A stretch of DNA of 64,000 nt. Source: a virus. Its lineage: Duplodnaviria; Caudoviricetes. The stretch covers positions 1 through 64,000 of IMG/VR virus record IMGVR_UViG_3300012007_000015; one strand, given 5' to 3'. The notes beneath the pieces were generated by a model, which worked only from the letters and a program-made list of their open reading frames with translations, did no database searches and was not told where the DNA came from. The translations under genes and the position numbers were made by a program. Position 1 is the stretch's first letter. Each line of letters begins with the position of its first letter. Positions 16,558 through 52,916 of this stretch are shown piece after piece.

Positions 16558-16575
16558 AATATATTGTGATTTTTG

Positions 16576-16962
16576 TTATTTCTTCTGTTGTTTCTGCTCT
16601 TTGTGGACGGGGATTTCTATTTCCTCTCCAGCTTTGAGCTCCATGGGCGCGCCGAGTCCAGACATGAAGTTTTCGAGCTTCTGTTGTGCCTCGTACGCCG
16701 ATTTGAAGTCATTCCAAGCCTTCTTGTCGGCACCCTTGAGGTACTTTGTGTGCGTATTGTCTACCGACATGAACTGTATCTGGGCGATACTGAGACCGTA
16801 GAGATAATCGTCTAATCGGTATTGTGTGAAGGCTCGGAGGAAGTCTGCGGCATCCGCAATGACTGTGCTTCCGTAAACAGTGATGCTGTCTCCTCCGATT
16901 TCCTCTTCCGAGTCAGAAGTGAATCCGTAAGCGTACTCACCGATTTTCTGAGTAAAAAAAAA
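16576..16962 (-). CDS. Tail assembly chaperone T part (reached by -1 frameshift)
   Basis: The -1 frame stays open from the T9 run (16954-16962) to 16576 and lies directly upstream of the tape measure gene. Confidence 0.75.
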   Translation of the reverse strand, partial: FFFTQKIGEYAYGFTSDSEEEIGGDSITVYGSTVIADAADFLRAFTQYRLDDYLYGLSIAQIQFMSVDNTHTKYLKGADKKAWNDFKSAYEAQQKLENFMSGLGAPMELKAGEEIEIPVHKEQKQQKK

Positions 16963-17429
16963 CCAGACAAGTCGATGGACTTTATTGCACCGAGAATGAT
17001 AGCCGCCCACTGGTTTGTGTCGAATGTGGAGTTCATTACCTTTGCCTTCATGACAGATACGAGCTTGTCGTTCCTCGACATTACTTCGTCAACATCTTCA
17101 TAAGTCTTAATGCCCTCTGGAGTAAACAGGTGGTTGCAAAGGATGATGGCCATAATCTCGCACATGGCATCGAGGTCTGTGCAAAGGGCCGTTATTACCT
17201 TGTTGTCATCATCGAGTGAGCTGTCTGTGGCACGCATATCCATGACGAGCCTGCAGATGCGGAACAGCGAATAGTAGCGCATATTCTTAACCCTGTATTC
17301 CTTGTCTCCAAGAAACACCAGAGACGGGCTGTCGTTGATAATATCCACAATGTCACGCTTGACATCTATCGGGAAATCCTTCATTCCCTCCTCTTCGTCC
17401 TTTTTCTTATTGTCTGTATCTTTCTTCAT
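16812..17429 (-). CDS. Tail assembly chaperone G
   Basis: Lies between the tail tube and tape measure genes and contains a slippery site. Start reassigned to MKKDTD. Confidence 0.75.
   Translation of the reverse strand: MKKDTDNKKKDEEEGMKDFPIDVKRDIVDIINDSPSLVFLGDKEYRVKNMRYYSLFRICRLVMDMRATDSSLDDDNKVITALCTDLDAMCEIMAIILCNHLFTPEGIKTYEDVDEVMSRNDKLVSVMKAKVMNSTFDTNQWAAIILGAIKSIDLSGFFLLRKSVSTLTDSLLTRKRKSEETASLFTEAQSLRMPQTSSEPSHNTD
16954..16962 (-). promoter_or_regulatory. Programmed -1 ribosomal frameshift site
   Basis: Minus strand TCT GGT TTT TTT TTA (SGFFL) versus -1 frame TGG TTT TTT TTT ACT (WFFFT); contains the heptamer U-UUU-UUA. Confidence 0.75.
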
Positions 17430-17474
17430 AACTCTTGTTCTTCTGATTGGAATCGGTTTCTTCTTTAATCTAAA

Positions 17475-17546
17475 TGGGGATGCGTCGGCGGGCGTATGAT
17501 AACCCAACAACGCACCCCCACGTTACGGCAGTCTTGTACGAGACTG
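17475..17546 (-). terminator. Two stem-loops between tail tube and chaperone (attenuator or mRNA-stabilising hairpins)
   Basis: Minus strand CAGTCT/AGACTG stem, then TGGGGGTGCGT...ACGCATCCCCA stem, with only a short U tail. Confidence 0.45.
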
Positions 17547-18056
17547 TTAGCTTGCAGCGCGTCCTACCAGCTTGTACATGTGGTCGACAGCCTCGGCACC
17601 AGTGCCAGTGGTATGAACCAGAGCAGTGATGGTCACGCTGTAGTTCAGAGCACCGTCGGCATCCTTCTTCAAGGTACCGATGGTCAGACCACGGTAGATG
17701 TACAGGGCTGCATGGCCACGACCGAAGTCAAGCTGCCAAGAGTGCTCACTGGTGTAAGCGCTGGCTGCGCCCTCATAGCTCTCGGGGGTCTGGCCAGAAG
17801 CGGCGGTATAGGTGCCACCGAACAGGTCAGGCAGCTCTGACAGCTCATAGTTGGCCAGCTCGAACGTCATGGTTACGGGGTTGCCATCATAGAAGATGTC
17901 AAAGGGGCTGTCATAGAACTCGGCCTCAATCTCGGTAGCCTCGGGCTCGTCCTGACCGATAGTCAGACCCTTCAAGACACCCATGAGCTTGGTGGAAGCA
18001 GCAGCACCAACGTTTCCATACATAAGGCTAATTGCCTTTACAGTTGTCTTTCCCAT
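17547..18056 (-). CDS. Major tail tube protein (copy A)
   Basis: Canonical position after the tail terminator and before the chaperones; 169 aa, beta-rich and acidic. Confidence 0.8.
   Translation of the reverse strand: MGKTTVKAISLMYGNVGAAASTKLMGVLKGLTIGQDEPEATEIEAEFYDSPFDIFYDGNPVTMTFELANYELSELPDLFGGTYTAASGQTPESYEGAASAYTSEHSWQLDFGRGHAALYIYRGLTIGTLKKDADGALNYSVTITALVHTTGTGAEAVDHMYKLVGRAAS
17859..17960 (-). repeat. 102-bp perfect inverted repeat, arm 1 (partner at 28157-28258)
   Basis: Base-by-base comparison: ATCGGTCAGGACGAG...ATGACGTTCGAG is identical in both tube genes. Confidence 0.95.
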
Positions 18057-18092
18057 AGTTTTTTCCTTTCTATTGATTAATTGATAAATGAA

Positions 18093-18530
18093 TTATTGAT
18101 TGCCGTCTACTATAACGACGAACGATTTAACGAACATGTAGTACGCATTGTTGGCGTTTTCTTCCTCGCCAAGGTCTGCAGAGATGAAGCTGTCTGGTTG
18201 AATCCAGTACGTTCCAGTATTGTCAGACTCGCTTGCAGTCTTGATGGCCGCATTGATGTCGTTCTCGAACTTCTCGTACTTCTCAACGTCGAGACGTCCT
18301 CTCGTGATGGGAGGAACATAGCATTGAACGTATACGCGCGCCATGCCATAGGCCTCATCTTGAAACTCGCTCGCATCGACAAAGTCACCAACAACGATGA
18401 CTATGAAGCCGTCCTCTGCGTCGGACTGCAGAAGCTCCTGCGGCTCGTTCATCAGATATACGTTTTCGGTTACACTCTCAAGTATCTCCTCGACGTACTT
18501 GTATATGCCTATTCTCGATTCGTTGACCAT
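18093..18530 (-). CDS. Tail terminator / completion protein
   Basis: Acidic 145-aa ORF directly upstream of the tail tube gene; called from synteny. Confidence 0.6.
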   Translation of the reverse strand: MVNESRIGIYKYVEEILESVTENVYLMNEPQELLQSDAEDGFIVIVVGDFVDASEFQDEAYGMARVYVQCYVPPITRGRLDVEKYEKFENDINAAIKTASESDNTGTYWIQPDSFISADLGEEENANNAYYMFVKSFVVIVDGNQ

Positions 18531-18533
18531 AAA

Positions 18534-19238
18534 CTATCTTTCTCTACCGATAACTGGTATTCCTTTTCTATTCTTGAACTTCCTCTTCCACTTATTGCTG
18601 GTATAGATGTACTTCGGAACATAGACCGTCAGTCGGCTCTCTTTAGGCTTCAGCGCAACTCTTACATCGTCGTATATATGCGACATGACTTGGAACTGTC
18701 TGAATCCTGCATTGAAACTCGGAGTTACAATGTTGCCAGCTTTGTTCCCTCTTGCGCCCATGGTGTATTTGCCTCCACCGCCTTTCATGGTGAATCCGCT
18801 CTCCCAGTAGCCCCAATAGGGTGCGAGAATAGCGAAGAACACTACCCATCCGTGGTACTCGGTCTTATAGGAAGCCAGAAACTTACTTGCCATCTCGTGA
18901 CCATCAACGTTCTCCATGTCGTTTGAAAAGAACTCATGGAGCCATGACTGTGAGCTGCCACCCATACCTTTGTCATGATACACTGGTTCCCTATAATATC
19001 CGTATGCTTTGCGCTTTCCGTTGTAGAAAACACCCCAGCAGAGGGAGTTTAGAAGATTTCCAGTCCTATCCATGTGATTCCTACTGTTGTAGGTCTGAAT
19101 AATATCTCCAAGAACCTTTATCTCCTTCTCGGCATATTCGATAAGACGCTGCGTCTGCAGTTCAATGGAGTTGTCTTCCACCTCCTTGCGGAAAGCGGCA
19201 GGGTTCCAACCGATGAGCATTGTCTTACCTATAGCCAT
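18534..19238 (-). CDS. Neck / tail-completion protein
   Basis: Position in the head-tail connector block; contains DRTGNLLNSL, similar to the RTGNL motif of HK97 gp10-like proteins. Confidence 0.55.
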   Translation of the reverse strand: MAIGKTMLIGWNPAAFRKEVEDNSIELQTQRLIEYAEKEIKVLGDIIQTYNSRNHMDRTGNLLNSLCWGVFYNGKRKAYGYYREPVYHDKGMGGSSQSWLHEFFSNDMENVDGHEMASKFLASYKTEYHGWVVFFAILAPYWGYWESGFTMKGGGGKYTMGARGNKAGNIVTPSFNAGFRQFQVMSHIYDDVRVALKPKESRLTVYVPKYIYTSNKWKRKFKNRKGIPVIGRER

Positions 19239-19240
19239 AG

Positions 19241-19576
19241 TTACCAGCTGTTACGTGATGCGTAGATGCTTACGCCGCCGAGTTGTGACGGCTCCGCATT
19301 GTCGACCGTGAGCTTGAAGGTCTCACCGTAGCGGGTAATGGTAATCTTGTCTCCCTTGCGGGGTACAATCCACTCGTTATCGGTGTTCTTTACGAGGGGG
19401 ATGCTGATGATGTATGAGGATGTCTGCAGGGTCTTGCCCTCTTCGTCCGTCACCATGTGCTCGTCCATCACGCCCTCGTAAAGCAAGACCTCTGAGTCCT
19501 GCTTACTCCCTTTGCCTTGTATCACACGCATTATGGTGCCTGTGTAGGGGTATTCGAGTATCTCTTCTCGCTCCAT
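19241..19576 (-). CDS. Head-closure (stopper) protein
   Basis: 111-aa beta-rich ORF in the connector block; called from synteny. Confidence 0.55.
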   Translation of the reverse strand: MEREEILEYPYTGTIMRVIQGKGSKQDSEVLLYEGVMDEHMVTDEEGKTLQTSSYIISIPLVKNTDNEWIVPRKGDKITITRYGETFKLTVDNAEPSQLGGVSIYASRNSW

Positions 19577-19580
19577 GGAA

Positions 19581-19967
19581 TTATAATCGGTCTACGTCTT
19601 CGATGGGGATGAATGTTATCTTCTTCTTGGAGTTCTCCAGAATCTTCGCACGTTCGTCGTCGTATTTGTTGTAAATATCGATAGCATACTTGATTTTATC
19701 GTTCTGGTAGTAGTCTTGTTCCTGTCCGATGGTCTTTTGGAAACCATTGTGGCTTTGTGACAAAGACGCGGTATTTGAGGGCGAAAGCAATACTGCCGTG
19801 AAGATGATGTCTGCCGTCATGAGCTCCCTGTCGCGTAACGTGACCTTAGTCTCGTCGTACACGTCGTCAGTCGGATTAACACCTCTGTCGCCAGCAATCT
19901 TGATAAAATTCTTTTCGCTAAAGCGAGAATACGTCGTTGAAGCTTCCAACCACTCAAGTACCGTCAT
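19581..19967 (-). CDS. Head-tail adaptor protein
   Basis: First gene after the capsid gene; contains SLSQSHNGFQKTIG; called from synteny. Confidence 0.55.
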   Translation of the reverse strand: MTVLEWLEASTTYSRFSEKNFIKIAGDRGVNPTDDVYDETKVTLRDRELMTADIIFTAVLLSPSNTASLSQSHNGFQKTIGQEQDYYQNDKIKYAIDIYNKYDDERAKILENSKKKITFIPIEDVDRL

Positions 19968-20017
19968 CTTTGTACAAACTTTAAAACTACTAACCTAAAA
20001 CATGAAAATTACCAAGC

Positions 20018-21283
20018 CTATGCTGTTCTTGTGATGTCTACGACTACGTGGTACGGAGCCTCGTCCAGAACGGTAGCATAACGACCGATAACGTCCGTGT
20101 GGTATGCCTTCAGCATGCCGTTGGGCGTAACCTTGTTGATGACGTTCAGGAAGTTCTGCACCTTGGCCAGAGAGAACTGGATGCCGTTGTTGACCTCGCC
20201 AGACTTCATCAGCTCAACATCAGCGACCTGTGCATGCACGAGGACACCTGCGAAGCCGAGAGGACGGAGAACAACCACGTCGGGGTTCCAGCCGCTAACA
20301 GTGTGATAGGTCGTAATACCCTGCACAGTCTGCTGCTCGCGGACGATACGGATGGGCGAAATCTTCGAGATGGGCGAACGGCTATAGGCCACCAGCTGCT
20401 CCCAAGTGATAGTGTCTACGTTGGTGGTAGAGCTACCGTTGGTGACGACAATCACCTTGTCGGGTGCATAGAGCGAGATATAGCGGTTAACCTCCTTGAC
20501 GAAGGCGGCGTTCTTCAACAGGACGTTGATAACGGTGGCCCAAGGAATGTTCCACTCGAACGGGGTGCTCTCGGGGATGTACTTCGACATCTTGAAGTCG
20601 TACTCAATCTTGCGCATCTGCTCGGGGATGTCGGCGTTGGGGTCAGTCCAGACGTCGTTGATGGCAGTCTTGAAGTTCTCCAGAGGGATATAGGCGCTCT
20701 GTGCGGTAGTTACGCCGCTAAAGCCCTTGGTGGTCTTACCGCCGCCAAGGTCGATGGTATTACCATACTGACCGCCGCGAGACAGCGTCATAGCGGCCAT
20801 GTTGGATACGGTGAGGTTGTGAGACTTGACCAAGTCTGCAACGCCGCGTACGAAACCAGTCACGAGGTTCTCATCGCTGCCGAGCTCGCGAAGACGGGCC
20901 TGCAACTCCAGCTTAGACATAGAGGTCTCGAACAGTCCCTTACCATACTGGTAGATGGAACCAGTCTTCTCCTCCATACCCTCAGCGTCGAGCTGCATAG
21001 TCTCCGACAGGGGAGCCATAGAGTCAGCCATGGGAACGGTGCGGTTAATCTTCTGACGGACAGTCCACGCGGGATTCTTCTTCAGGTCAGCCACGTCTAC
21101 TTGGTACTCGGCGCCCTCCACACGGAAGTGCTCCTGCCAGAAGAAAGCATTCTCCTCAATCTCGATGGTGTTGTCGATGAGGGTCTGTAAGAAGCCCTTG
21201 TTGGCACCATCCATGAAGCCTTTCTGGTAAAGCTTCTCAATCGCCTCGTCGGGCGACCATTGATATTTCAGTGCATTTGACAT
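20018..21283 (-). CDS. Major capsid protein
   Basis: 421 aa, strong codon bias, located after the scaffold and decoration genes and before the adaptor. Confidence 0.8.
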   Translation of the reverse strand: MSNALKYQWSPDEAIEKLYQKGFMDGANKGFLQTLIDNTIEIEENAFFWQEHFRVEGAEYQVDVADLKKNPAWTVRQKINRTVPMADSMAPLSETMQLDAEGMEEKTGSIYQYGKGLFETSMSKLELQARLRELGSDENLVTGFVRGVADLVKSHNLTVSNMAAMTLSRGGQYGNTIDLGGGKTTKGFSGVTTAQSAYIPLENFKTAINDVWTDPNADIPEQMRKIEYDFKMSKYIPESTPFEWNIPWATVINVLLKNAAFVKEVNRYISLYAPDKVIVVTNGSSTTNVDTITWEQLVAYSRSPISKISPIRIVREQQTVQGITTYHTVSGWNPDVVVLRPLGFAGVLVHAQVADVELMKSGEVNNGIQFSLAKVQNFLNVINKVTPNGMLKAYHTDVIGRYATVLDEAPYHVVVDITRTA

Positions 21284-21311
21284 ATCTTGTTTCCTTTCCT
21301 TACTTTAGTGA

Positions 21312-21986
21312 TTACATCCAGAAGATGCCTTCGATGTACGAACGGTTCTTCGCGAGGACGTACTTCGGCAGGGGCTGCATACGCGGAATCCAAGCCTGCT
21401 TGTCATAGACAGCGGAGATGGAGTAGTTAGCAGTGCCGTCGATACCATATCCCTCAGTGGGCATAAGGTCACGGTCAGCCTCGATGAACGTGTTGGGGTT
21501 GGGTACGAGCACCACGGCGTCAGCGGCCTTCTCGGTGCCAGCAGCCTCTACGAGGATAGCACCAGCGGTCAGTTCGCCAAGGGTGTTGTCGAGAGTCACG
21601 GTGAATTTCTCGTTGGCCTTGTCGTAGACAACGTTGGTAATCTTTGCAGACTGACCAGTTTCCTCGACATTGTCAGGAGCGACCATAAGCAGCATGCCCA
21701 CTTCGGGAGCATCGCTGTAGCCATCACCGTTCAGAACGTACTCGGTTGCAGCTGCGGCAGCATTGGCCTTGAGCTCAAACGAGCGGAAAATCAGACATCC
21801 CTTCTCGGGGGTGTACTGTACGAGCTGTGCGGCATACAGATGGTCGAAGCCCTTCTTGGGATTCAGAATAGTACCGCCGAGGAGCACGTTCTTGCGGCTC
21901 TCACCGTTGCTGTCCTTAACCCAGACCCACTTACCACCACGCAGTTTTCGCGAAGCCTCGTAGAAATACGCTAAGTTTGTTACCAT
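21312..21986 (-). CDS. Head decoration / minor capsid protein
   Basis: Between scaffold and capsid genes, with the same codon bias as the capsid gene. Confidence 0.55.
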   Translation of the reverse strand: MVTNLAYFYEASRKLRGGKWVWVKDSNGESRKNVLLGGTILNPKKGFDHLYAAQLVQYTPEKGCLIFRSFELKANAAAAATEYVLNGDGYSDAPEVGMLLMVAPDNVEETGQSAKITNVVYDKANEKFTVTLDNTLGELTAGAILVEAAGTEKAADAVVLVPNPNTFIEADRDLMPTEGYGIDGTANYSISAVYDKQAWIPRMQPLPKYVLAKNRSYIEGIFWM

Positions 21987-22009
21987 AATAGTTTTACTTT
22001 AAATGAAGT

Positions 22010-22645
22010 TTAACTTGTTACTTTTACCTTCTTCATTGACTGAAGGAACTCCTCGTCACGCTGCTTGGTTGCTTGAGGCGCAAGGGGTCTGATGTTTCCG
22101 TAGCTCGGGGCCATAATGTCTTGGTAACGGCTAACGAGCGTATCAGCCTGCTCCTTCGTGTCGGCATCCAGCTTGACTTCGTAGTCCTGTGCAAACTTCT
22201 CGAAAGAGGTGTGCAGGTCGGGCTGGATGTTTTTCTTGGCAAGCGCAATGATAGCCTTGAACTTTTCTTGTTTAGACTGTGCCGTCTTGAACTCCTTGAG
22301 CTCTTCCAGCTGACTCTTGATTTCGTCGGGGATTTCAACAGTCGGCGTAGCGGCAGGCTTACCAATCTTTTTGTTTAACTCTGCAATCTGAGCCTTGTAG
22401 TCGTTTTCTTTCGTCTGGAACTCAGTTGCCTTGACCGTAGCCAGTTCCGATGCGCTCGAAAAAGCCGTGTTGAGCGCGAACTTGAGCGAGTTGAGAATGG
22501 CCTCGTCGCTGACATCTCCTTCTGGGTCGGCCTTCTGGAAGTGGTCTGCGAACTTGTCCTTAAACGCATCGGTAAGAGTTGCTGTTGTGTACTGTTTCTC
22601 GGTACAATAGTCGTTTACTTTCTGTAAAACTTCTTCTTTTGTCAT
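22010..22645 (-). CDS. Capsid scaffolding protein
   Basis: Charged, helical 211-aa protein at the start of the head operon. Confidence 0.65.
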   Translation of the reverse strand: MTKEEVLQKVNDYCTEKQYTTATLTDAFKDKFADHFQKADPEGDVSDEAILNSLKFALNTAFSSASELATVKATEFQTKENDYKAQIAELNKKIGKPAATPTVEIPDEIKSQLEELKEFKTAQSKQEKFKAIIALAKKNIQPDLHTSFEKFAQDYEVKLDADTKEQADTLVSRYQDIMAPSYGNIRPLAPQATKQRDEEFLQSMKKVKVTS

Positions 22646-22684
22646 AGTTTTCTACTATAAAATAAGGTGAAAAAATGTTCGCTG

Positions 22685-22692
22685 CAAAAATA
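22685..22692 (-). promoter_or_regulatory. -7 element of the leftward head-tail promoter
   Basis: TATTTTTG on the minus strand, about 40 nt before the scaffold start; no clear -33 TTTG. Confidence 0.55.
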
Positions 22693-22777
22693 CCACAAAA
22701 AATATAGAGTAAAAAAATATTACAGACGGAAGTTTGGCATAATATACCAAAATATAAATAACTTCCGCTTGTATGGC

Positions 22778-22808
22778 TTTGAAACGATAAGTTTTAACTC
22801 TATCTTTG
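22778..22808 (+). promoter_or_regulatory. Rightward promoter for the terminase operon
   Basis: TTTG (22778-22781), 19 nt, TATCTTTG (22801-22808). Confidence 0.7.
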
Positions 22809-22832
22809 CACCGAGAAATTTCTTAACACAGC

Positions 22833-25649
22833 ATGGCAAAAAAGAGAAACGACATAGTATTGGCTCCGTTGGAGGATGGCAACCAAAAGCATGCCATTCG
22901 CTCCAACGCAGACATTGTCGCGTTCGTCGGGCAAACTGGTTCGGGGAAACAAAACCCCATTGATGAGCCTGTTTTAACGGTCAACGGATGGGTTAAAATG
23001 GGTGATTTGAAGATTGGTGATGAACTATTCTCGCCGCTCAATACAGAACCGTCTTTTGTTACTGGTATTTATCCGCAGGGTGTCAAACCAGTATATAAAG
23101 TAACGACAAGCGACGGTCGTGTTTCTCGCTGCGGACTTGAGCATCTGTGGATGGTTCGTACAGAAAAGCAAGTGGAGAATTGGAGAAAAGGAAAAGGTTC
23201 TGCATACATTAAGACGACAAGAGAAATATTAGACGAATATATTTCCAAGGGAAAGAATATATTCATCCCACTTGCGAGACCTTACGACGGAAAGGAGAAA
23301 GAACTTCCGATTGACCCTTATGTCCTTGGCGTTTGGCTTGGAGATGGTTGTTCACATCATGATTCTTTTGTGATTTCTGGAGACGAAATTGATGTTATAA
23401 AAAAAGTTTCAGACAAACTAAAAACAACGTTTCGTTTTCATAGCAGCGAGAACTATAGCAACATGATACACCAGAACGAAAAAGTCTCTTCCGTCAAAAA
23501 ATATATTAGAGAGTCTGGACTGGATGTGTACTCGCACGAAAGGTTTATCCCAGAAGAGTATCTGCACGCTTCTGTTGAGCAGCGTATGGAACTGTTGAAA
23601 GGATTGATGGATAGCGACGGAAATATTGAAGAAAAGAACCGTTACTCTTTCTCTACGACAAGTCCTAAGTTGAAGCGATGTTTCATTGAACTTTGCAGAG
23701 GACTTGGTTATATCGTCGGAGAAAATAAAGACAGCCGAACACGCTATAAGAGCGGAGAGTGTTGGAAGATAACAATCCAGACGAACGACATAATCTTCAG
23801 CAGCAAGAAGCACCTCGACAAATACCGCGCGAACTTGGAGAAATACAAGAACAAGAATCGTGAGTACAAGCATGACCATGTGCGCATTATAAATATAGAA
23901 TATGTGGGAGACATGGAGTGTCAATGTATAATGGTTTCCAACAGAGACCACTTATACTGCACACATGACTATATTGTGACACATAACACAATTGCTTTAT
24001 ATTACGCCCCGATTGAGTACCTTGCCATGAATGACAACGCCAAGGCTGTGTGCTTCATGCGTAACGTCGCGGACTTCTGGGCCACTGGTAAGGTCGCGGA
24101 CACTGTTAAGCAGATGTATCCGCTCGTTGACAGAGGCGCAGGAAAGAAGCAGCCGCATGACCCGATAGGAGAAATCCGAAGAGGACAGGAGGACATGGGC
24201 GTCAAGTTCTACAACGGCTCCGAGATTAAGTTCCAGCAGCTTGACAACGAGAGTCCTATCGTGATTGATAAGATTACGAAGGGTCTGCAGGCGAAGATAC
24301 TTATTTTCGATGAGTGCAACAAGTTCCTCTGGAGAACCATATCGGCATTCTTCCCGCGCATGCGTTCCGATTCTTCTGGTAAGGCACAGGTGTTCCTTGC
24401 ACAGAACCCAGAGCGCGAGTGCTTCATGCGACAGATGTGTGGAAAGGGAGAGCACGGCGGAGGATGGATTAATGACGACGGCTCTATAGACAAGGATATG
24501 GACGGCGTAGTCATGTTCGTGTTCTTTCCAGACGGTGACTACGAAAGAGCAGTCTGGGGCCGAACTAAGAAAGAAGTATACGAGAAAGGCAAGGAGTGTA
24601 TAGACAAGCTGCTCGCAATAGACCAAGATATGTCCTACGAGGACTTTATCCTGTCGTTCGCCTTCTTTACGTTCGATGTGAGAGACAACAAGAAGATGCT
24701 CTCAAAGAACAAGAAGTATCGCGGTCTTGCAGCTAACTCGACGACAGCAAAGTCTTCCTATGAGAACAACTGGAACTACTCTCTCGAAGACGAAAAGGGA
24801 GATGCCGAAGACCTCGCGAACGTACAGCTAAGTAATACGGACGTTGAGCGCATGTTCAGACATATAGAGATTCCCTACGAGAGCCAGTGCATCAAGAAGT
24901 TCATGACTGTAGACTATGCTACAACGGGATTCGATAACTTTGTAATGAAGTATTGGGAGCTGTGGGAGCACTACGGCTTTATCTGCAAGGATATTCAGTT
25001 TTCCATGAAGAACTCCAATAAGGAGGCCGTGATTATGATGATTGACTTCCGCGACCGTCATGGACTTCAGGAAAAGGAGATGATTATCGACGTGCAGGGC
25101 TCCACGTTCCTGCGCGACTGCTTCCCAAGAGCCATCAACTTTGCAGGTGCATCACAGCCTACGGAGCGCTCGAAGGCCCAGTACAAGACTCGCAAAGACG
25201 AGGCTGCACACCTCTGCATGGAGATGATACAGGCTGGACTCATACACTACGACCCGAAGCTCGCAGATGCAAGGTACAATCACCAGAATATGAAGAGAGA
25301 GGGTGCGACCACCGTACTCCGCCACATGAAGTTCGAGAGCGTCATCTTCCAGTTTGGAAAGACACCGAACGGGCGCATCACCATGCTCGACAAGGAGAAA
25401 CAGAAAACCTTCCTCAAAGGTATGTCTCCAGACCTGTTCGACAATGTCATCATGCTTTGCGGAGGTCTGTATCACACGTGCTATAATATGCTGCGTGACG
25501 ATGCAGGCATAATGCGCAAGAAGATGCAGGCGGAAGACATGCTCAGCCTCCTCAACGTAAACGGACGCGAAGAGGTTGACACGAGAATACACCGTGTTAG
25601 GAAGATTAGGAATGCAAGCGAAATATTAAACGTTTTAAGTACGATATAA
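22833..25649 (+). CDS. terL: Terminase large subunit with intein
   Basis: Walker A GQTGSGK/T split by an intein, Walker B ILIFDE, AQNP coupling motif, nuclease acidic motifs (VDYATTGFD, PDLFD); upstream of the portal gene. Confidence 0.92.
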   Translation: MAKKRNDIVLAPLEDGNQKHAIRSNADIVAFVGQTGSGKQNPIDEPVLTVNGWVKMGDLKIGDELFSPLNTEPSFVTGIYPQGVKPVYKVTTSDGRVSRCGLEHLWMVRTEKQVENWRKGKGSAYIKTTREILDEYISKGKNIFIPLARPYDGKEKELPIDPYVLGVWLGDGCSHHDSFVISGDEIDVIKKVSDKLKTTFRFHSSENYSNMIHQNEKVSSVKKYIRESGLDVYSHERFIPEEYLHASVEQRMELLKGLMDSDGNIEEKNRYSFSTTSPKLKRCFIELCRGLGYIVGENKDSRTRYKSGECWKITIQTNDIIFSSKKHLDKYRANLEKYKNKNREYKHDHVRIINIEYVGDMECQCIMVSNRDHLYCTHDYIVTHNTIALYYAPIEYLAMNDNAKAVCFMRNVADFWATGKVADTVKQMYPLVDRGAGKKQPHDPIGEIRRGQEDMGVKFYNGSEIKFQQLDNESPIVIDKITKGLQAKILIFDECNKFLWRTISAFFPRMRSDSSGKAQVFLAQNPERECFMRQMCGKGEHGGGWINDDGSIDKDMDGVVMFVFFPDGDYERAVWGRTKKEVYEKGKECIDKLLAIDQDMSYEDFILSFAFFTFDVRDNKKMLSKNKKYRGLAANSTTAKSSYENNWNYSLEDEKGDAEDLANVQLSNTDVERMFRHIEIPYESQCIKKFMTVDYATTGFDNFVMKYWELWEHYGFICKDIQFSMKNSNKEAVIMMIDFRDRHGLQEKEMIIDVQGSTFLRDCFPRAINFAGASQPTERSKAQYKTRKDEAAHLCMEMIQAGLIHYDPKLADARYNHQNMKREGATTVLRHMKFESVIFQFGKTPNGRITMLDKEKQKTFLKGMSPDLFDNVIMLCGGLYHTCYNMLRDDAGIMRKKMQAEDMLSLLNVNGREEVDTRIHRVRKIRNASEILNVLSTI
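22950..23987 (+). mobile_element. Intein (346 aa) with LAGLIDADG homing endonuclease, class-3-like
   Basis: Starts QNPIDEPVLTVNGW; block B CGLEHLW; LAGLIDADG motifs YVLGVWLGDG and LLKGLMDSDG; block F QCIMV; ends IVTHN followed by Thr. AT-richer than the exteins. Confidence 0.92.
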
Positions 25650-25653
25650 AAAG

Positions 25654-27171
25654 ATGATTAGACTGAAAGATATTAACTGGTATCTCAGCGAACCCACGAG
25701 GCTGTTACAGATGAAGCCGTTCGTCCGTGGTGGCAAGATGAACTCCCATGGATGGGAGATGGAACCGCTTCCGAACAACACAACGATTGAGACTGGCTTC
25801 TGCAACCTCGACCTCGTCCCAATCTCGCAGGACACCTATATCACGGAATACAAGCCGTCGCTACATACCATACTGATGAATAAGTCGATTCCGCACATCA
25901 AGGTAACAATCGACGGAATGCCGCTTAACATTGGCATGATGGACATGACGCAGACGGGCTCGTTCCAGAAGCTCATTCATAGTGCGCACGTACGTTCGCT
26001 TACATCTAACCCGCTGGAGTTCAACCTTGGAAAGACGGATGCAGACGGAGGCGGCATGAAGCCGTTCGAGTATGTCAAGGATGAGTGGAACTCGCGCAAC
26101 ATGGACTGGTGGCTTTCGAGGGCCATCAACGCACAGAAGATGGTCGGTAACTGCGGTCTGCTGTTCTCATTCGACAAGGAGACAAACAAGAGCATGGTTA
26201 CTTGCTTGTCGTACGAGGACGGATACCAGATTATCCCGAACTACGACGAGTACGGCTCCGAGATTGCACGCTCTCTCGCATACCAGATTGACAACAAGAT
26301 AGTCATCGATACGTATGACAACACAAAGCACTACCGCTGTATGCAGAAAGACAATGGCTGGGAGACACAGTATGAGTTACACGGATACTCAAGGTGCCCG
26401 CTGCTGCACCAGAGGGGAACCGTCGCTTGGGAGTACGCGGAGAGTTCCTGCGAGATGTGGGAGCTGATGACAAACATCAATAATATCGCACTCAAGCGTT
26501 TCGGTACGTTTGCCCTTGTATTCACAGGTGATATGGATAAGGATTCCTTCAAGAGGGATTCCAGTACGCTCATCATCAACCTTTCAAGCGACAACACCAA
26601 CGGAAAGCAGAGTGCAGACGTTCTGAAGTTCCCAGAGCCAACAACAATGAACGAGTACCTAAAGACTCTGGAGGAGAAAATATCCCTGTTCTCGTCTACT
26701 TCCTTCATTACGCCGAAGGATATTACAGCAACTAATAGCGGCGGCAACGGCATAGCCCTCGCCATGTCTAACGACTATGCCCTCGCTACGCAGTCCGCTC
26801 TTGACTGGCGTAAGTTCGTCAACGACATGGTGTACCTGCACCAAGAGGGCCTCGACCTTGAGACGAACGGCGCAGAAAAGTATGCACAGTTACGTGTAGG
26901 CGCAAAGATTGTTCCTTGGTCTCTTGAGACGAACAATACGAAGATTACGAACCTCGCCATGGAAGCCAAGTGGCTGTCTATGCAGACTATCATCGAGAAG
27001 TCTCCAGATGCAGCTCCCGACGAGGCAGACCGCATCATCAAGGAGCGAGGCTCACTCATTCCGCAGGGCGCAAGCGACATCGACGAAGGCACCGACAAGG
27101 CACAGCGCATCAGTATAAACCGCAACAACACAATACGTGACAATGTTGCAAAAACAGGAGAGGAGGAGTAG
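25654..27171 (+). CDS. Portal protein
   Basis: 505 aa, directly after terL; C-terminal LAMEAKWLSMQTIIEK segment resembles SPP1-type portals. Confidence 0.8.
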   Translation: MIRLKDINWYLSEPTRLLQMKPFVRGGKMNSHGWEMEPLPNNTTIETGFCNLDLVPISQDTYITEYKPSLHTILMNKSIPHIKVTIDGMPLNIGMMDMTQTGSFQKLIHSAHVRSLTSNPLEFNLGKTDADGGGMKPFEYVKDEWNSRNMDWWLSRAINAQKMVGNCGLLFSFDKETNKSMVTCLSYEDGYQIIPNYDEYGSEIARSLAYQIDNKIVIDTYDNTKHYRCMQKDNGWETQYELHGYSRCPLLHQRGTVAWEYAESSCEMWELMTNINNIALKRFGTFALVFTGDMDKDSFKRDSSTLIINLSSDNTNGKQSADVLKFPEPTTMNEYLKTLEEKISLFSSTSFITPKDITATNSGGNGIALAMSNDYALATQSALDWRKFVNDMVYLHQEGLDLETNGAEKYAQLRVGAKIVPWSLETNNTKITNLAMEAKWLSMQTIIEKSPDAAPDEADRIIKERGSLIPQGASDIDEGTDKAQRISINRNNTIRDNVAKTGEEE

Positions 27172-27174
27172 ACT

Positions 27175-27552
27175 ATGGGCTGGATGGAATTTGTACTTGG
27201 CATGGCAACACTTGTACTCGGTACTGGCTGGCTGTTTACATACCACTCTCACAAGAAGAAAGAAGAGGGCGAGGCAACACAATCTGAGGCAAACGGTTGG
27301 CTCAAGCAGCAGGAGGTGTACCAACACACCATTGAAGACCTTGAGAAAGCCTGTGACTTCATACGTAACGACCGTAACCAGCTACGTGAGGAGAACTCGC
27401 GACTTATCTCTGAGAACAACGAGCTAAGACGCACAGTGGTCGAGTTGCAAAACACTGTATTCGACCTCAAGAAAGAGGTTTCACGCCTCGGAAGACGTGT
27501 CGACGCCATGAGTGAGAAAAAGAAGAAAAACGACAAAAATACGGAAGGATAA
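27175..27552 (+). CDS. Holin-like membrane protein (one TM plus coiled coil)
   Basis: N-terminal TM segment, basic C-terminus, stop overlaps the lysozyme start. Confidence 0.5.
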   Translation: MGWMEFVLGMATLVLGTGWLFTYHSHKKKEEGEATQSEANGWLKQQEVYQHTIEDLEKACDFIRNDRNQLREENSRLISENNELRRTVVELQNTVFDLKKEVSRLGRRVDAMSEKKKKNDKNTEG

Positions 27553-28031
27553 TGACGCTTATGAAGACATCCCAGAAAGGCATTGACCTTATCAAGAAGT
27601 TCGAGGGCTGCAAGTTGTACGCCTATCGTGATTCTGTTGGCATCCCGACCGTTGGCTATGGCCACACAAGCGGCGTCAAGATGGGCATGGCTATCACGCA
27701 GGCACAGGCAGACAAGTTCCTCGCCGAAGACCTTGCTGCAGTTGAGTCCGTCCTTAACAAGATGAACATTAACTTCAAGCAGAATCAGTTCGATGCTCTG
27801 GCCGCTTGGATATTCAACCTTGGCGAGGGTAAGTTCAAGGGTTCCACGTTGTACAAGAAAATCGTTGCACGCGCCACTGACCTTGAAATCACTGACCAGA
27901 TAGTCCGATGGATTAACGCTGGCGGCAAGCCGTCTCTTGGATTAAAGCGCCGCCGCGTCGCAGAGGCCAACATGTTCTTGGGACGAGACGAATATCGTAT
28001 TGATGCACAAGGAAATATAAACAAGAAATAA
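27552..28031 (+). CDS. Endolysin, GH24 phage lysozyme
   Basis: FEGCKLYAYRDSVGIPTVGYGHT carries the E-x8-D-x5-T triad; also QNQFDAL...FNLG and GLKRRRVAE. Confidence 0.93.
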   Translation: MTLMKTSQKGIDLIKKFEGCKLYAYRDSVGIPTVGYGHTSGVKMGMAITQAQADKFLAEDLAAVESVLNKMNINFKQNQFDALAAWIFNLGEGKFKGSTLYKKIVARATDLEITDQIVRWINAGGKPSLGLKRRRVAEANMFLGRDEYRIDAQGNINKK

Positions 28032-28057
28032 TTTATTTACTTTAAGATTGTAAGATT

Positions 28058-28840
28058 ATGGGAAAAACTACAGTAAAACCAATCAGCCTTGGATACAGGG
28101 ATGTTGGTAGTTCTGGTAACTACAGGATGCTGATGGGTGTCCTTAAAGGCCTTACCATCGGTCAGGACGAGCCCGAGGCTACCGAGATTGAGGCCGAGTT
28201 CTATGACAGCCCCTTTGACATCTTCTATGATGGCAACCCCGTAACCATGACGTTCGAGTTGGCCAACTACACTTTGGATGAACTGCCTGATTTGTTCGGC
28301 GGAGCGTACGAGCAGGTTGACGACGAGTACGATGGAGAGGCGAATGTCTACACTTCCGAGCACGAGTGGAAGCTTGATTTCTCACGTGGCTACGCATCTC
28401 TTGTCCTCTATCGTGGCCTTACGATAGGAACCATCAAAAAGGACGCTGACGGTGCCCTTAATTTCTCTGTGACAATTACTGCTCTTATATACGAGGACGG
28501 CGACGAGAGTCACATGTACAAGATTGTTGGTGCTCCTCTTCCTCCTCCCGAGCCAGAGATTGTCAGCGTTAACAACGTTGAGAACGGCGGCAACTCGTTC
28601 GCTGTAATATCCTCTAACTGGTATCCGATTGTCGTCAACGTTCCAGTATCCGTTGTCGGTGCGGCAAGCGTGAAGATTAACAACGTTTCCGTAGATGCCA
28701 TCGGCGAGACCTCTGGTACAAGCGGAGACGTGACGGACAAGACGACGTTCTATTTCCGTCCTACGGCGTACACAACCGTCACATCAGTCAAAGTGACAAC
28801 CGTTGGCGGAGACGTTCTCACGGCAACTTTCGGAAGCTAA
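28058..28840 (+). CDS. Tail tube paralogue (copy B) with a C-terminal beta-sandwich extension
   Basis: The N-terminal ~160 aa closely match 17547-18056; a PLPPPEPE linker is followed by about 90 aa rich in V/T/S. Confidence 0.85.
   Translation: MGKTTVKPISLGYRDVGSSGNYRMLMGVLKGLTIGQDEPEATEIEAEFYDSPFDIFYDGNPVTMTFELANYTLDELPDLFGGAYEQVDDEYDGEANVYTSEHEWKLDFSRGYASLVLYRGLTIGTIKKDADGALNFSVTITALIYEDGDESHMYKIVGAPLPPPEPEIVSVNNVENGGNSFAVISSNWYPIVVNVPVSVVGAASVKINNVSVDAIGETSGTSGDVTDKTTFYFRPTAYTTVTSVKVTTVGGDVLTATFGS
28157..28258 (+). repeat. 102-bp perfect inverted repeat, arm 2 (partner at 17859-17960)
   Basis: Identical to the reverse complement of 17859-17960; after one mismatch, 10 more bases match. 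Confidence 0.95.
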
Positions 28841-28866
28841 ATATTCATCATTAAACACATATTATT

Positions 28867-30039
28867 ATGAAGTACGTAAAGATTTATAACGAGAAGATGC
28901 AGCTCACTGGAGTTGCCGACATCGACAAGAACTACGACAAGACTGGCTATGTCAAGTGTTTCGACAAGGACATGAAGTTCATTGGCGTAATGGACGTCGA
29001 CACCATCCCCGAGTCTGGCGATGATATTCCCTACGTTGAGATGTTCGACGAGAACATGAACTTCGCTGGGGCTGTCACGGCAGACAATATCCGTCATTCC
29101 GATGGTTATCTTATCAAGTTGCAGAAAGACCCGTCTACTACTGGTAGTGTAAGTGGCGGCGGTCGCTTTGTCGAAGGTACGGAAGTCACCGTTGTAGCTA
29201 CTCCTGATTCTGAAGGCGATTATACCGCATTCGACGGCTGGTACGAGGGCGAGAATAAAGTTTCAAGGAACGCTTCGTACACATTCACAGTAAGCGGAGC
29301 GCGTACGTTGGTTGCGAAGTTCCTTAATCCTAATACAGTCATAACCTATACTGCCACAGAAAAGATAAGCGTAGGAAATAATTTTGGCAGTGCGCATATA
29401 ACATCCCACACGTTTGAGGATGGTCTTGGTATGATAAAATTTGACAACAGTGTAACAAGCATCGGAGACAACGCGTTCAAAGGTTGCTCTGGCTTGACGA
29501 GCATTGAGATTCCGAGCGGCGTAACAAGCATCGGAAGCAACGTGTTCAACGGTTGCTCTGGCTTGGCGAGCAATGAGATTCAGGGCGGCGTAACAAGCAT
29601 CGGAAGCAACGTGTTCAACGGTTGTACTGGTCTGGCGAACATCTCTGTTGATAGCAATAACACTAAATACGACTCTCGTGATAACTGTAACGCTATCATA
29701 GAGACGAGTACAAATACATTGAAGTTCGGTTGTAAGAGTACTGTTATTCCGAGCAGCGTAACAAGCATCGGAGGCAGTGCGTTCTACGGTTGTTCTGGCT
29801 TGACGAGCATTGAGATTCCGAGCAGCGTAACAAGCATCGGAGGCAGTGCGTTCTACGGTTGTTCTGGCCTCGCAAGTGTTGTTTGTAATCCAACAACGCC
29901 TCCGACTCTTAGCTCTTCTGCGTTTAACAACAATGCCGCTGGCAGAAAGATTTATGTACCTGCTGCAAGTGTAGACACCTACAAGGCAGCGTCTGTGTGG
30001 AGCACTTACGCAGATGACATTGAGGCAATACCGCAGTAA
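28867..30039 (+). CDS. BspA-like leucine-rich repeat (LRR_5) protein with an InlB B-repeat-like domain
   Basis: Repeats of IPSSVTSIGxxAFxGCSGLTSI; an upstream VSGGG...TVVATP...FDGWYEG...YTFTV...LVAKF module; three N-terminal YVxxF/YDxxMxxxG repeats. Confidence 0.88.
   Translation: MKYVKIYNEKMQLTGVADIDKNYDKTGYVKCFDKDMKFIGVMDVDTIPESGDDIPYVEMFDENMNFAGAVTADNIRHSDGYLIKLQKDPSTTGSVSGGGRFVEGTEVTVVATPDSEGDYTAFDGWYEGENKVSRNASYTFTVSGARTLVAKFLNPNTVITYTATEKISVGNNFGSAHITSHTFEDGLGMIKFDNSVTSIGDNAFKGCSGLTSIEIPSGVTSIGSNVFNGCSGLASNEIQGGVTSIGSNVFNGCTGLANISVDSNNTKYDSRDNCNAIIETSTNTLKFGCKSTVIPSSVTSIGGSAFYGCSGLTSIEIPSSVTSIGGSAFYGCSGLASVVCNPTTPPTLSSSAFNNNAAGRKIYVPAASVDTYKAASVWSTYADDIEAIPQ
29746..29868 (+). repeat. 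54-bp exact direct repeat within the LRR coding region (69-bp period)
   Basis: 29746-29799 is identical to 29815-29868. Confidence 0.9.
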
Positions 30040-30041
30040 AG

Positions 30042-30500
30042 ATGACCAAGGAAGAGTATTTTGTAGAAGTATGGCAGAGGAGTATGCGCAACCAAGGATG
30101 CTTATCGGTGGTTGCGTGTATCCTCGTCGCCTTTATTCTGATGCTGTCTTCCTGTGCCACTAAGACAAGAATCGAGTATCGTGACCGCGTTGTAGACCAC
30201 TATAATACGGTCACGGTACACGATACCTTAAAGATACATGATAAGGACAGTGTGTATCATCTTATAAGGGTTGTAAACGATACGGTTTATGATACCAAGG
30301 TAATTGAGAAGACAAGATGGAGAGACCACGTTATCACAAAGACAGACACCTGTTTTCGAGATAGCGTGCAGACCGAATATAAGGAAACCGTTAAAGAGGT
30401 TGTAAAATTTCCAAAGACATACTGGTACGCAGTAGGGTTTTCGATACTTTTCTTTATCCTCGTTGCGTACAAGCTTTACGTATTTATAAAAAGATTCTAA
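30042..30500 (+). CDS. Unimolecular spanin-like lipoprotein
   Basis: Lipobox LSSC after a hydrophobic signal, beta-rich periplasmic part, C-terminal TM followed by a basic tail. Confidence 0.75.
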   Translation: MTKEEYFVEVWQRSMRNQGCLSVVACILVAFILMLSSCATKTRIEYRDRVVDHYNTVTVHDTLKIHDKDSVYHLIRVVNDTVYDTKVIEKTRWRDHVITKTDTCFRDSVQTEYKETVKEVVKFPKTYWYAVGFSILFFILVAYKLYVFIKRF

Positions 30501-51831: not shown

Positions 51832-52047
51832 CTAAGCGTTTAAATTCTTGAACAGTCCGCCATTCTTCACGAATGCCTTGATGGGCACCTTGCAATACGT
51901 TACACCTCCGTAAGAGACGTCCACAATCGGACAGTCAACGAACAGGTTCCTATACTTTACGTCAACAAGGACGACATACTTTGGCATGCGTAGCTCCCTT
52001 TCGAGCCCGCTATGCGAATGTAGTTGTACAACACCTACAGACATCAT
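51832..52047 (-). CDS. Hypothetical protein
   Basis: Short ORF coupled to recT. Confidence 0.5.
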   Translation of the reverse strand: MMSVGVVQLHSHSGLERELRMPKYVVLVDVKYRNLFVDCPIVDVSYGGVTYCKVPIKAFVKNGGLFKNLNA

Positions 52048-52916
52048 TTACCTCCTCTCTTTTTGCCGTTGTTATCCTCTTCTGCGTCATCGAAGTCTGC
52101 GAACTTTTCGGCAACCTCCTGAGCCTTCTGTGCGTCTGCAATCTGTTGCTGCATGTCTCCTTCGTTGTCTATATACTCGTACTTGTCCTTCTCGAATTGG
52201 ATGCTCTGGTCAGCTTTGATAGCGTCCTGCATCTCTACGGAAAGAGGGGCGTTGCGAGACAGGTTGAGTTTAATAACCGTCTTCTTGGCCATATCATCGA
52301 AATCGGTAGTCCACTTACTCTCCTGTCTTACGTTATCGTATTTCGAGTGGTATGTCTGGGAATAACGGAGAGCATGCGCCTCCATCTCCTCGATAGACAT
52401 GTAAAACGTGGACTCGGCACCGTTAAGAAGGCGGAAATAGCTTGCATAGCCTATGGTCTTTGCGTTGGCGCGTTCTGTGTCGTTGTCGATGAACTTGAAT
52501 ACGCACTCACCTGTAAGACGGTTCCTGCTTATCAGCTCGCCCTCCTTGATTTCTGTCGCATTAGGGATGATTGCAAACTGTCCGCTTCTGAGTGCGAGCT
52601 GCTTAACCCCTTTATAACCCAACTGGAACTGGGCCACAACGGTTCCCTGCTTATTGTTCTTGTACGGGATACAGAACGCCATACCGAGAGACTTGTCGAG
52701 CGGTAGGTTAAGTGCTGTTGCTTTAAGCGCTGCGAACACAATTGTTGCAGGGACACATTCCTGAAGCTTTACGTCTCCAGCGACAAGGGCTGTAACATTG
52801 TTTACGAAGGAACCCTTACGCTCCTTGAGAATGTCCTCAAGATACTTCTGCCACACAGGGCTTGTGATGGTCTGGTTAAACAGCTGCAGACCTGTCATTT
52901 TCTTTTCTTCTGCCAT
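52044..52916 (-). CDS. recT: RecT-family single-strand annealing protein
   Basis: ALKATALNLPLDKSLGMAFCIPY...QFQLGYKGVKQLALRSGQ...WTTDFDDMAKKTVIK. Confidence 0.9.
   Translation of the reverse strand: MAEEKKMTGLQLFNQTITSPVWQKYLEDILKERKGSFVNNVTALVAGDVKLQECVPATIVFAALKATALNLPLDKSLGMAFCIPYKNNKQGTVVAQFQLGYKGVKQLALRSGQFAIIPNATEIKEGELISRNRLTGECVFKFIDNDTERANAKTIGYASYFRLLNGAESTFYMSIEEMEAHALRYSQTYHSKYDNVRQESKWTTDFDDMAKKTVIKLNLSRNAPLSVEMQDAIKADQSIQFEKDKYEYIDNEGDMQQQIADAQKAQEVAEKFADFDDAEEDNNGKKRGGK

Follow-up and report, generated by a model that had tools for sequence, protein, structure and literature searches.

Two tail-tube genes and the block between them

The window considered here is a stretch of 64,000 nucleotides (positions 1 to 64,000 of IMG/VR record IMGVR_UViG_3300012007_000015, Duplodnaviria; Caudoviricetes) from an animal-gut siphophage with a genome of ~81 kb. 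It carries two tail-tube genes, tube A and tube B, each at one edge of a 10.2-kb block. The layout is as described in the first-pass annotation of this sequence, with two divergent late operons and with head, terminase, portal and lysis genes lying between two repeat arms, one in each tube gene. No megablast match to 16500-30100 was found among GenBank phages, and a scan of 16000-31000 for promoter and terminator consensus sequences gave nothing above shuffled controls and is thus uninformative on operon structure. The features of this region are:

17547-18056, minus strand: tube A, a plain major tail (tube) protein of 169 aa with a match to phrog_6767, A-type clade (support 0.995)
17859-17960, minus strand: arm A, within tube A (codons 33-66), an exact match to arm B and the candidate conversion donor sequence
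17961-28156, both strands: the 10.2-kb block between the arms, in the same order and orientation in the ENA re-assembly and in relatives; minus-strand genes p145, p234, p111, p128, putative capsid (421 aa), p224 and p211; plus-strand genes large terminase (938 aa), SPP1-type portal (505 aa), p125 and endolysin
28058-28840, plus strand: tube B, 260 aa, with a tube domain (residues 1-163), a proline-rich linker and a predicted C-terminal beta-sandwich of ~95 aa
28157-28258, plus strand: arm B, codons 34-67 of tube B, which matches the reverse complement of arm A at every base
28867-30039, plus strand: BspA-type LRR protein, 390 aa (Pfam LRR_5, 1.1e-38; Flg_new_2, 1.1e-9)

Tube A follows the head-tail connector genes and precedes the overlapping chaperone frames and the tape measure gene, a synteny kept in 80 relatives. 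Tube B lies 3' of the endolysin in the terminase operon, away from the canonical tube position. The two proteins are 71% identical across 166 aa. An orthologous tube B of 260 aa is found in a sheep-gut strain of the same phage (Logan contig L099), between a lysin gene and an LRR gene; it clusters together with the window tube B and the second tandem tube copies of relatives in a B-type paralog clade (support 0.98), while tube A groups with A-type genes. Judged from their sequences, tubes A and B are old paralogs.

Structural comparison using VIA-align gave Z-scores of 8-11 for tube B residues 1-163 against the tube proteins of Chi, YSD1, Sf11, Bxb1, JBD30, SPR and lambda (gpV), with 125-148 residues aligned at an rmsd of 3.6-4.8. 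The alignment-based AF2 model has a core pLDDT of 70-84 and falls below 50 in the C-terminal part; a single-sequence model (pLDDT 48) was set aside. The top Foldseek matches were likewise all tube proteins, at E-values slightly over 1e-3, hence our use of VIA-align Z-scores. The C-terminal extension has no Pfam match, and an Atlas feature search with this domain returned no usable match; an ESM Atlas model of this part resembles Ig-like Big_5/CopC-type models (TM 0.53-0.72), in a region where our own model has a pLDDT below 50. The modelled fold of tube B, a Tube/Hcp-type beta-sandwich, and the gene position of tube A thus mark both as predicted siphophage tail-tube proteins.

Between the endolysin and p152, tube B and the LRR gene make up a two-gene insertion of 2 kb. 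L050, a relative, has the lysin gene directly next to p152, and the module is likewise absent from the other IMG/VR relatives. Proteins related to the LRR protein occur in IMG/VR (L083-L097) in unrelated phages with BspA-type repeats, and none has a tube B neighbour.

The 102-bp repeat and its bounded tract

The segments 17859-17960 and 28157-28258 are exact reverse complements over 102 bp, each lying within one tail-tube paralog and in identical codon phase, as the first base of both arms is codon position 1. A repeat finder and an alignment agree that the longest substring common to the two genes is exactly 102 nt (A nt 97-198, B nt 100-201). The genes differ at 28 of 93 sites upstream of the arm, at none of the 102 sites within it and at 115 of 285 sites downstream. 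The perfect inverted repeat and the diverged flanks noted in the first-pass annotation are both borne out.

Because the record is a metagenome-assembled contig, and each of two related contigs (L050 and L063) stops inside a tube gene, 402 nt along it, we considered whether the identical stretch or the orientation of the block might be the product of collapse or chimeric joining of similar regions or strains during assembly. We judge this very improbable, since the sequence agrees across three assemblies of the source data (IMG/VR, ENA scaffold and Logan) and the orientation is the same in strains with non-identical arms, where assembly is unambiguous. Logan contigs (k=31) of the probable source run do break exactly at both arms, with flank contigs reaching 30 nt into them, and orientation in that run is not resolvable from such contigs. 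However, these flank contigs link flanks specific to B with arm bases of A type, at flank depth, no native-B arm contig is present, and the arm itself forms a separate 102-nt contig with a depth of 24.5 compared to ~15 in the flanks (1.6x, not 2x). Assembly collapse, which the first-pass annotation had named as grounds for refuting its proposal, was thus not found, and the breaks, the separate contig and the flank joins support a real repeat.

If the arm segment had its native A/B divergence (24/102), 102 consecutive identities would arise with a probability of ~1e-12. The identity could also be maintained in the absence of copying if selection acted on the nucleotides themselves, for example on an RNA or DNA signal in both tube genes, and the arm is indeed the most conserved portion of the tube domain, with a nearly invariant consensus and a mean divergence of 23%, compared to 33% outside the arm, across 3403 pairs from 83 family members. 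However, only one of these 3403 pairs combines an identical arm with >10% divergence elsewhere, and that is the window pair; tandem tube paralogs of relatives differ at 22-29 of the 102 arm sites, and the orthologous tube B of L099 differs from that of the window at 24 arm sites, mostly synonymously. Selection on the nucleotides is therefore already contradicted, and we regard it as exceedingly improbable.

The tube B of L099 differs from the window tube B at only 4 of 93 sites before the arm and 7 of 285 after it (11/378 outside the arm), compared to 24 of 102 inside. At each of the 24 sites the window tube B carries the tube A base. A classification of sites across the three genes yields an unbroken run of 25 sites (the 24 in the arm and nt 204) spanning B nt 102-204, at which the window tube B matches the window tube A and differs from L099; native-B sites flank this run at B nt 98 and nt 213, and none lies inside it. 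One private base change in tube B lies at 28259 (B nt 202). The tract is accordingly delimited as:

28156-28269 at most, 28159-28261 at least, plus strand: candidate A-to-B conversion tract in tube B, 103-114 bp, from three-way site classes

As all 24 arm sites of the window tube B carry the tube A base while its flanks remain close to L099, the tract appears to be discrete and directed from A to B, a direction based on the single orthologous tube B available (L099). We propose, with a probability of roughly 85% and on the strength of these site patterns, that the repeat was left by a single recent and non-reciprocal A-to-B gene conversion of 103-114 bp, private to this strain. The recent recombination or gene conversion suggested in the first-pass annotation is supported by this bounded tract.

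In such an event, 103-114 bp of the canonical tube A would have overwritten the matching stretch of its old, diverged paralog. In L099 the arms of tubes A and B differ at 24 of 102 sites and have no identical run of more than 15 bases; with no longer identity common to the two genes at this point before conversion, the exchange would have been homeologous. Arm A is nearest to A-type orthologs, at 12-17 differences, and the donor direction draws as well on the sheep-gut tube A, which is identical to that of the window at the five arm positions among the differences listed. A co-infecting relative was rejected as donor, as the nearest foreign arm has 12/102 differences compared to 0/102 for the phage's own tube A. 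Comparison of the arm peptides indicates that only two residues of tube B were altered by the patch, which may therefore have been able to persist without selection.

Orientation of the block

The first-pass annotation had proposed that the repeat drives recurrent flips of the 10.2-kb block, exchanging the late operon that serves each tube C-terminus and its downstream tail genes and so phase-varying plain and decorated tube subunits. Much about the locus would permit this. A crossover within the repeat would preserve the reading frame and cost no gene, as had been claimed and as the phase and sequence of the arms confirm, and a flip would leave every gene and the two central divergent promoter regions intact. 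The phage encodes RecT and an exonuclease, the repeat of 102 bp is longer than the minimal pairing segments required by RecA (31-34 bp) and Red-beta (23-27 bp; PMC3945230), and genome isomers of a 30-kb segment flanked by inverted repeats coexist in Anabaena cyanophages (bioRxiv 10.64898/2026.02.14.705889).

However, one orientation was found throughout. The ENA scaffold of the source sample is collinear with the record over 7547-38840 and free of N. Six runs hold the stretch or part of it, all of them examined as Logan contigs. Contigs of a bovine-gut strain span 16962-20921 and 27915-29486, and contigs of a sheep-gut strain span 17514-20469 and 27549-29388, crossing both arms in each case in the window orientation, which implies a single dominant form. 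No strand-changing joint is present among those listed for the Logan contigs. All 80 of the 80 IMG/VR relatives keep the order head (p145), tube, chaperones, tape measure, and at contig level the flipped arrangement is absent from these relatives and from two assemblies of the source sample. The comparison of relatives for either arrangement, which the first-pass annotation had suggested, thus returned the window orientation only, in the 80 relatives as in the bovine-gut and sheep-gut strains. Clusters at 90% identity among 15 billion proteins contain a single member for tube A and two for tube B (those of the window and L099), with no further member on record that could be an A/B chimera. Metagenome contigs were also scanned with an exact pattern for the inverted arrangement, in which the outer flank of A is followed by 102 N and then by the inner flank of B in reverse complement; this gave 0 matches, but so did the native-junction control, making the scan uninformative.

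Conservation would also be expected of a switch, and the repeat does not display it. The inverted paralog pair is confined to the window and the bovine-gut and sheep-gut strains, and the perfect repeat to the window strain, the other two having non-identical arms in the same orientation. As the tube B and LRR module is absent from IMG/VR relatives, there is no conserved invertible architecture. A ~10-kb inversion switch is therefore not borne out by the assemblies and relatives examined, and we consider it improbable.

The repeat is instead a by-product and no designed recombination site, and the 10.2-kb block is in principle invertible by ordinary homologous recombination. There is a small chance that, in the window strain alone, the block is now flipped at a measurable rate by the RecT/RecE-like system or by host RecA. 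Lysates would in that case contain two genome isomers, together with chimeric A/B tube genes coding for 170 and 259 aa and exchanged operon partners. If true, this would be a newly arisen inversion polymorphism and not an evolved switch.

Recombination genes and comparison with known systems

Two recombination genes lie in the right-hand part of the window:

52044-52916, minus strand: RecT-family single-strand annealing protein (Pfam RecT, 7.8e-34; phrog_148, 5.3e-55; six-frame search)
53081-54073, minus strand: RecE-like recombination exonuclease adjoining recT (phrog_434, 2.7e-8)

The first-pass annotation had described a RecT/YqaJ pair. RecT is present, but its partner is a RecE-like exonuclease, as Pfam YqaJ had no match in a six-frame search of the genome or in a direct scan of the exonuclease itself. 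The statement that no dedicated invertase is present holds within the window but not for the whole genome, which encodes one serine recombinase (273 aa, genome positions 68207-69028), outside the window, 40 kb from the repeat and with no inverted repeats around it. This gene is kept in 5/5 complete relatives, each with one tube gene or a tandem pair and none with an inverted pair; since it is conserved where the inverted pair is absent, it is not linked to that pair.

The phage's own RecT/RecE-like pair, acting among replicating genome copies, would be the most likely catalyst of the conversion, while host RecA or replication template switching could also give an identical tract. On substrates of 78% identity, such RecT/exonuclease pairs are ~100-fold more efficient than the RecA pathway (PMC3945230). 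The closest known process is interparalog (ectopic) gene conversion with homeologous recombination by Rad52-like recombinases of phages, such as lambda Red, RecT/RecE and Erf. At the present locus a short tract of 100% identity is embedded in sequence of 60-77% identity, in agreement with the published 'mosaic with flanking HR trace' (PMC3945230), and the phage likewise encodes a RecT/exonuclease pair; however, the published exchanges occurred between a phage and a prophage or second phage, whereas ours would lie within one genome, between inverted structural paralogs, with the enzyme deduced. The conversion fits the relaxed recombination described for enzymes of this type.

The inversion systems of Mu (G/Gin), P1 (C/Cin) and Salmonella (Hin) likewise have inverted repeats in tail-related genes and a small serine recombinase gene in the genome. 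In this phage, however, the recombinase lies far from the repeat and is kept in relatives lacking it, no segment-specific invertase is adjacent, the arms would represent a conversion tract confined to one strain rather than crossover sites under conservation (in L099 no identical run there exceeds 15 bases, and the relatives have no tube B at that place), and no inversion was seen. Herpesvirus segment inversion, in which a large block bracketed by inverted repeats is inverted by general recombination, may also be likened to the present block. The Anabaena cyanophages again have a large block between inverted repeats (10-30 kb across the compared cases) that is invertible by general recombination, but their repeats are 400-700 nt long and conserved in position among relatives, orientation varies between isolates, and both isomers are detected by PCR and reads (bioRxiv 10.64898/2026.02.14.705889), none of which was seen here in the contigs and relatives examined.

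The striking repeat would thus have an ordinary cause, and the idea of a phase-variation switch is unsupported. The locus would instead provide a cleanly bounded case of intragenomic homeologous gene conversion in a phage, for which donor, recipient and unconverted ortholog are all available. There is also a practical warning, as such tracts fragment short-k assemblies and leave the orientation of the enclosed segment ambiguous.

The tube genes themselves recall SPP1 gp17.1/gp17.1* and further tube proteins decorated by Ig-like or FN3 domains (PMC8718954), in which a plain subunit is accompanied by a form bearing a C-terminal beta-sandwich on a linker. In SPP1 a programmed frameshift within one gene yields the long form, whereas here the putative long form, with its predicted C-terminal beta-sandwich, is encoded by a separate gene, 71% identical, in another operon 10 kb away. 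This animal-gut phage family repeatedly keeps two tube paralogs, the B type having varied C-terminal decorations and lying in tandem with the A type or moved to the other late operon. The tube duplication may therefore represent a gene-duplication route to the mixture of plain and decorated tube subunits that SPP1 obtains by frameshifting.

Tube genes A and B and the repeat they share

The window covers the opening 64 kb of an IMG/VR virus record of 80,926 bp, which CheckV rates as complete. Its two divergent tube genes carry a 102-bp perfect inverted repeat, which matches exactly where the first-pass annotation had placed it.

17547-18056, minus strand: tube A, 169 aa
17859-17960: arm A, tube A nt 97-198, the exact 102-nt stretch in common with tube B
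28058-28840, plus strand: tube B, 260 aa
28157-28258: arm B, tube B nt 100-201, the exact 102-nt stretch in common with tube A

Both arms start at codon position 1. The flanks differ at 28 of 93 aligned sites before the arm and 115 of 285 after it, the proteins are 71% identical, and at the native A/B divergence of the segment 102 straight identities have a probability of ~1e-12. Logan contigs (k=31) of the probable source run stop 30 nt within each arm, yielding an inner contig of 10,256 nt plus one of 102 nt that stands alone (depth 24.5 versus ~15 in the flanks); because flank contigs reach 30 nt into the arms, these data do join B-specific flanks to A-type arm bases. The 81,605-bp scaffold (L098, L102) of an ENA re-assembly, apparently made from the same sample, aligns collinearly to the record across 7547-38840; it shows four mismatches and no N there.

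Neither tube protein matched Pfam, while both matched phrog_6767 (function not annotated). An AF2 model of tube B (45-sequence alignment; core pLDDT 70-84) had siphophage tube proteins as all of its top Foldseek matches, and residues 1-163 gave VIA-align Z scores of 8-10.9 against the tubes of Chi, YSD1, Sf11, Bxb1, JBD30, SPR and lambda (gpV). The C-terminal 95 residues resemble Ig-like Big_5/CopC-type sandwiches (TM 0.53-0.72 with the Atlas model; pLDDT <50 there in our own). As a putative plain/decorated tube pair, A and B are like gp17.1/gp17.1* of SPP1, where the ratio is 3:1 and the FN3 domain is not essential (PMC8718954), but the SPP1 pair arises by frameshifting and this one by gene duplication.

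Tube A occupies the canonical place, between connector genes and two overlapping chaperone frames followed by a 2338-aa tape measure protein. The frames (16576-17510; 144 and 232 aa), both kept in relatives, have the layout usual for frameshifted tail assembly chaperones and are putatively assigned as such. Tube B is preceded by genes for the large terminase, an SPP1-type portal, p125 and endolysin, and followed by those for a BspA-type LRR protein, p152 and an 1851-aa protein. The LRR gene contains a 138-nt unit three times (29430-29873; 82-83% identity), at which source-run Logan contigs fragment; in one bovine-gut contig 70 nt are missing (29570-29641), a hint that repeat copy number varies between strains. 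The large terminase (22833-25649; 938 aa) is matched by most relatives over only ~590 aa, as two adjoining pieces, and at full length by the locus L075, consistent with an insertion present in some family members only.

Tube paralogs in the phage family

Among 80 IMG/VR loci with a tube homolog, all have one operon ordered p211, p224, putative capsid gene, p128, p111, p234, p145, tube, chaperones, tape measure (p, predicted protein named by length in aa), and a divergent operon ordered terminase, portal, p125, (lysin), p152, p1851, both oriented as in the window. Neither tube B nor the LRR gene follows the lysin in any of the 80. Since lysin and p152 directly adjoin in one of these loci (L050), tube B and the LRR gene form a 2-kb two-gene insertion. 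Just one tube gene is present in four complete relatives (77-88 kb), and four loci have a tandem pair ahead of the chaperones, A-type then B-type:

L011:3993-4982
L012:1708-2743
L017:4744-5773
L059:5-733, part of G005, a complete 79.5-kb genome

In a tree built with the arm columns left out, tube B clusters with the second tandem copies (support 0.98) and tube A sits apart, in an A-type clade (0.995); because of this placement the duplication behind the two genes is judged to be old. B-type copies differ in their C-terminal tails (179, 260 and 263 aa), those of the tandem pairs being either 179 aa long, ending in a low-complexity tail, or 263 aa long and carrying another domain. Tube proteins of the family fall into length classes of ~160-179, 204-221 and 260-263 aa. 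Two unrelated IMG/VR contigs stop exactly 402 nt into a tube gene (L050:10001-10402, L063:10001-10402), and the one of 79,508 bp begins within such a gene as well, which suggests that assemblies in this family are often broken by tube-gene repeats.

Gene conversion from tube A to tube B

Clustering of 15 billion proteins at 90% identity groups tube B with a single other sequence, encoded on a Logan contig of a sheep-gut run (L099; 2217 nt; order lysin, tube B, LRR). The two tube B genes differ at 42 sites in all, 24 of them within the 102-bp arm, compared to 4 of 93 before it and 7 of 285 after. In a three-way classification, window tube B agrees with tube A and not with L099 in an unbroken run over B nt 102-204, bounded by native-B sites at nt 98 and 213 and containing a private change of window tube B at nt 202. 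Within the arm L099 differs from tube A at 24 of 102 sites, the ordinary A/B divergence, and is nearest to the B-type copies of relatives. Since window tube B matches tube A across a bounded run where L099 does not, 103-114 bp were copied from tube A into tube B in the window's lineage, after its split from the sheep-gut strain. Comparison with this one ortholog demonstrates, at the sequence level, that A to B conversion made the repeat, and bears out the recent recombination or gene conversion first proposed. The conversion alters just two residues of tube B. Constraint at the nucleotide level as the cause of arm identity is excluded, because arms diverge by 23% family-wide, tandem paralogs of relatives differ at 22-29 of 102 arm sites, and no second pair with identical arm and diverged flanks was found among tube-gene pairs of the family.

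The tract agrees with the 'mosaic with flanking homology trace' described for relaxed recombination in phages (PMC3945230). Until the conversion, A and B matched perfectly over at most 15 nt, mid-arm, a length below the minimal pairing segments quoted for RecA (31-34 bp) and Red-beta (23-27 bp). Recombination of 78%-identical substrates was ~100-fold more efficient with RecT/RecE, Red and Erf pairs than through the RecA pathway (PMC3945230). The genome encodes these recombination proteins:

52044-52916: RecT
53081-54073: RecE-like exonuclease, adjoining RecT
genome 68207-69028 (L101:1099-1920), outside the window: serine recombinase, 273 aa (Pfam Resolvase 9e-26; best PHROG 'DNA invertase' 9e-31)

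We infer that RecT and the RecE-like exonuclease may have made the tract. Of the RecT/YqaJ pair previously named, RecT is present, but Pfam YqaJ had no match in a six-frame search of the genome or a direct scan of the exonuclease. That no dedicated invertase was seen holds for the window only; the serine recombinase gene lies beyond it. No inverted repeats lie within 1.5 kb of the serine recombinase gene, and it is kept in five complete relatives (40-63% identity), all without the inverted tube pair; on these grounds we regard it as unrelated to the 102-bp repeat.

Orientation of the 10.2-kb block

The first-pass annotation proposed that the repeat serves as a 10-kb inversion switch. Orientation was read from assembled contigs, which drop rare variants. 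In runs from two other studies, contigs span arm A and arm B in the window's orientation (bovine gut, 16962-20921 and 27915-29486; sheep gut, 17514-20469 and 27549-29388), traversing the arms because these are not identical in those strains; the bovine-gut strain has five differences within arm A. No strand-changing joints were listed in the contig matches of the runs examined, and the comparison with related genomes that had been suggested returned only the window's arrangement (80/80 loci), the orders lysin, tube, chaperones and p145, tube, LRR occurring in none. The 90% clusters hold one (tube A) and two (tube B) sequences, with no further candidate for a chimeric A/B protein. A pattern scan of metagenome contigs gave 0 matches to the flipped junction, as it did to the native-junction positive control.

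Large genome isomers flanked by inverted repeats are known in Anabaena cyanophages, where the repeats span 400-700 nt and are kept among relatives, and PCR and read mapping showed both isomers (bioRxiv 10.64898/2026.02.14.705889); judged from contigs here, the 102-bp repeat shares none of these properties. With one orientation in the contigs of the source and two other strains, the inversion switch finds no support and is unlikely, although inversion may occur at a low level, as a by-product, in the window's strain.
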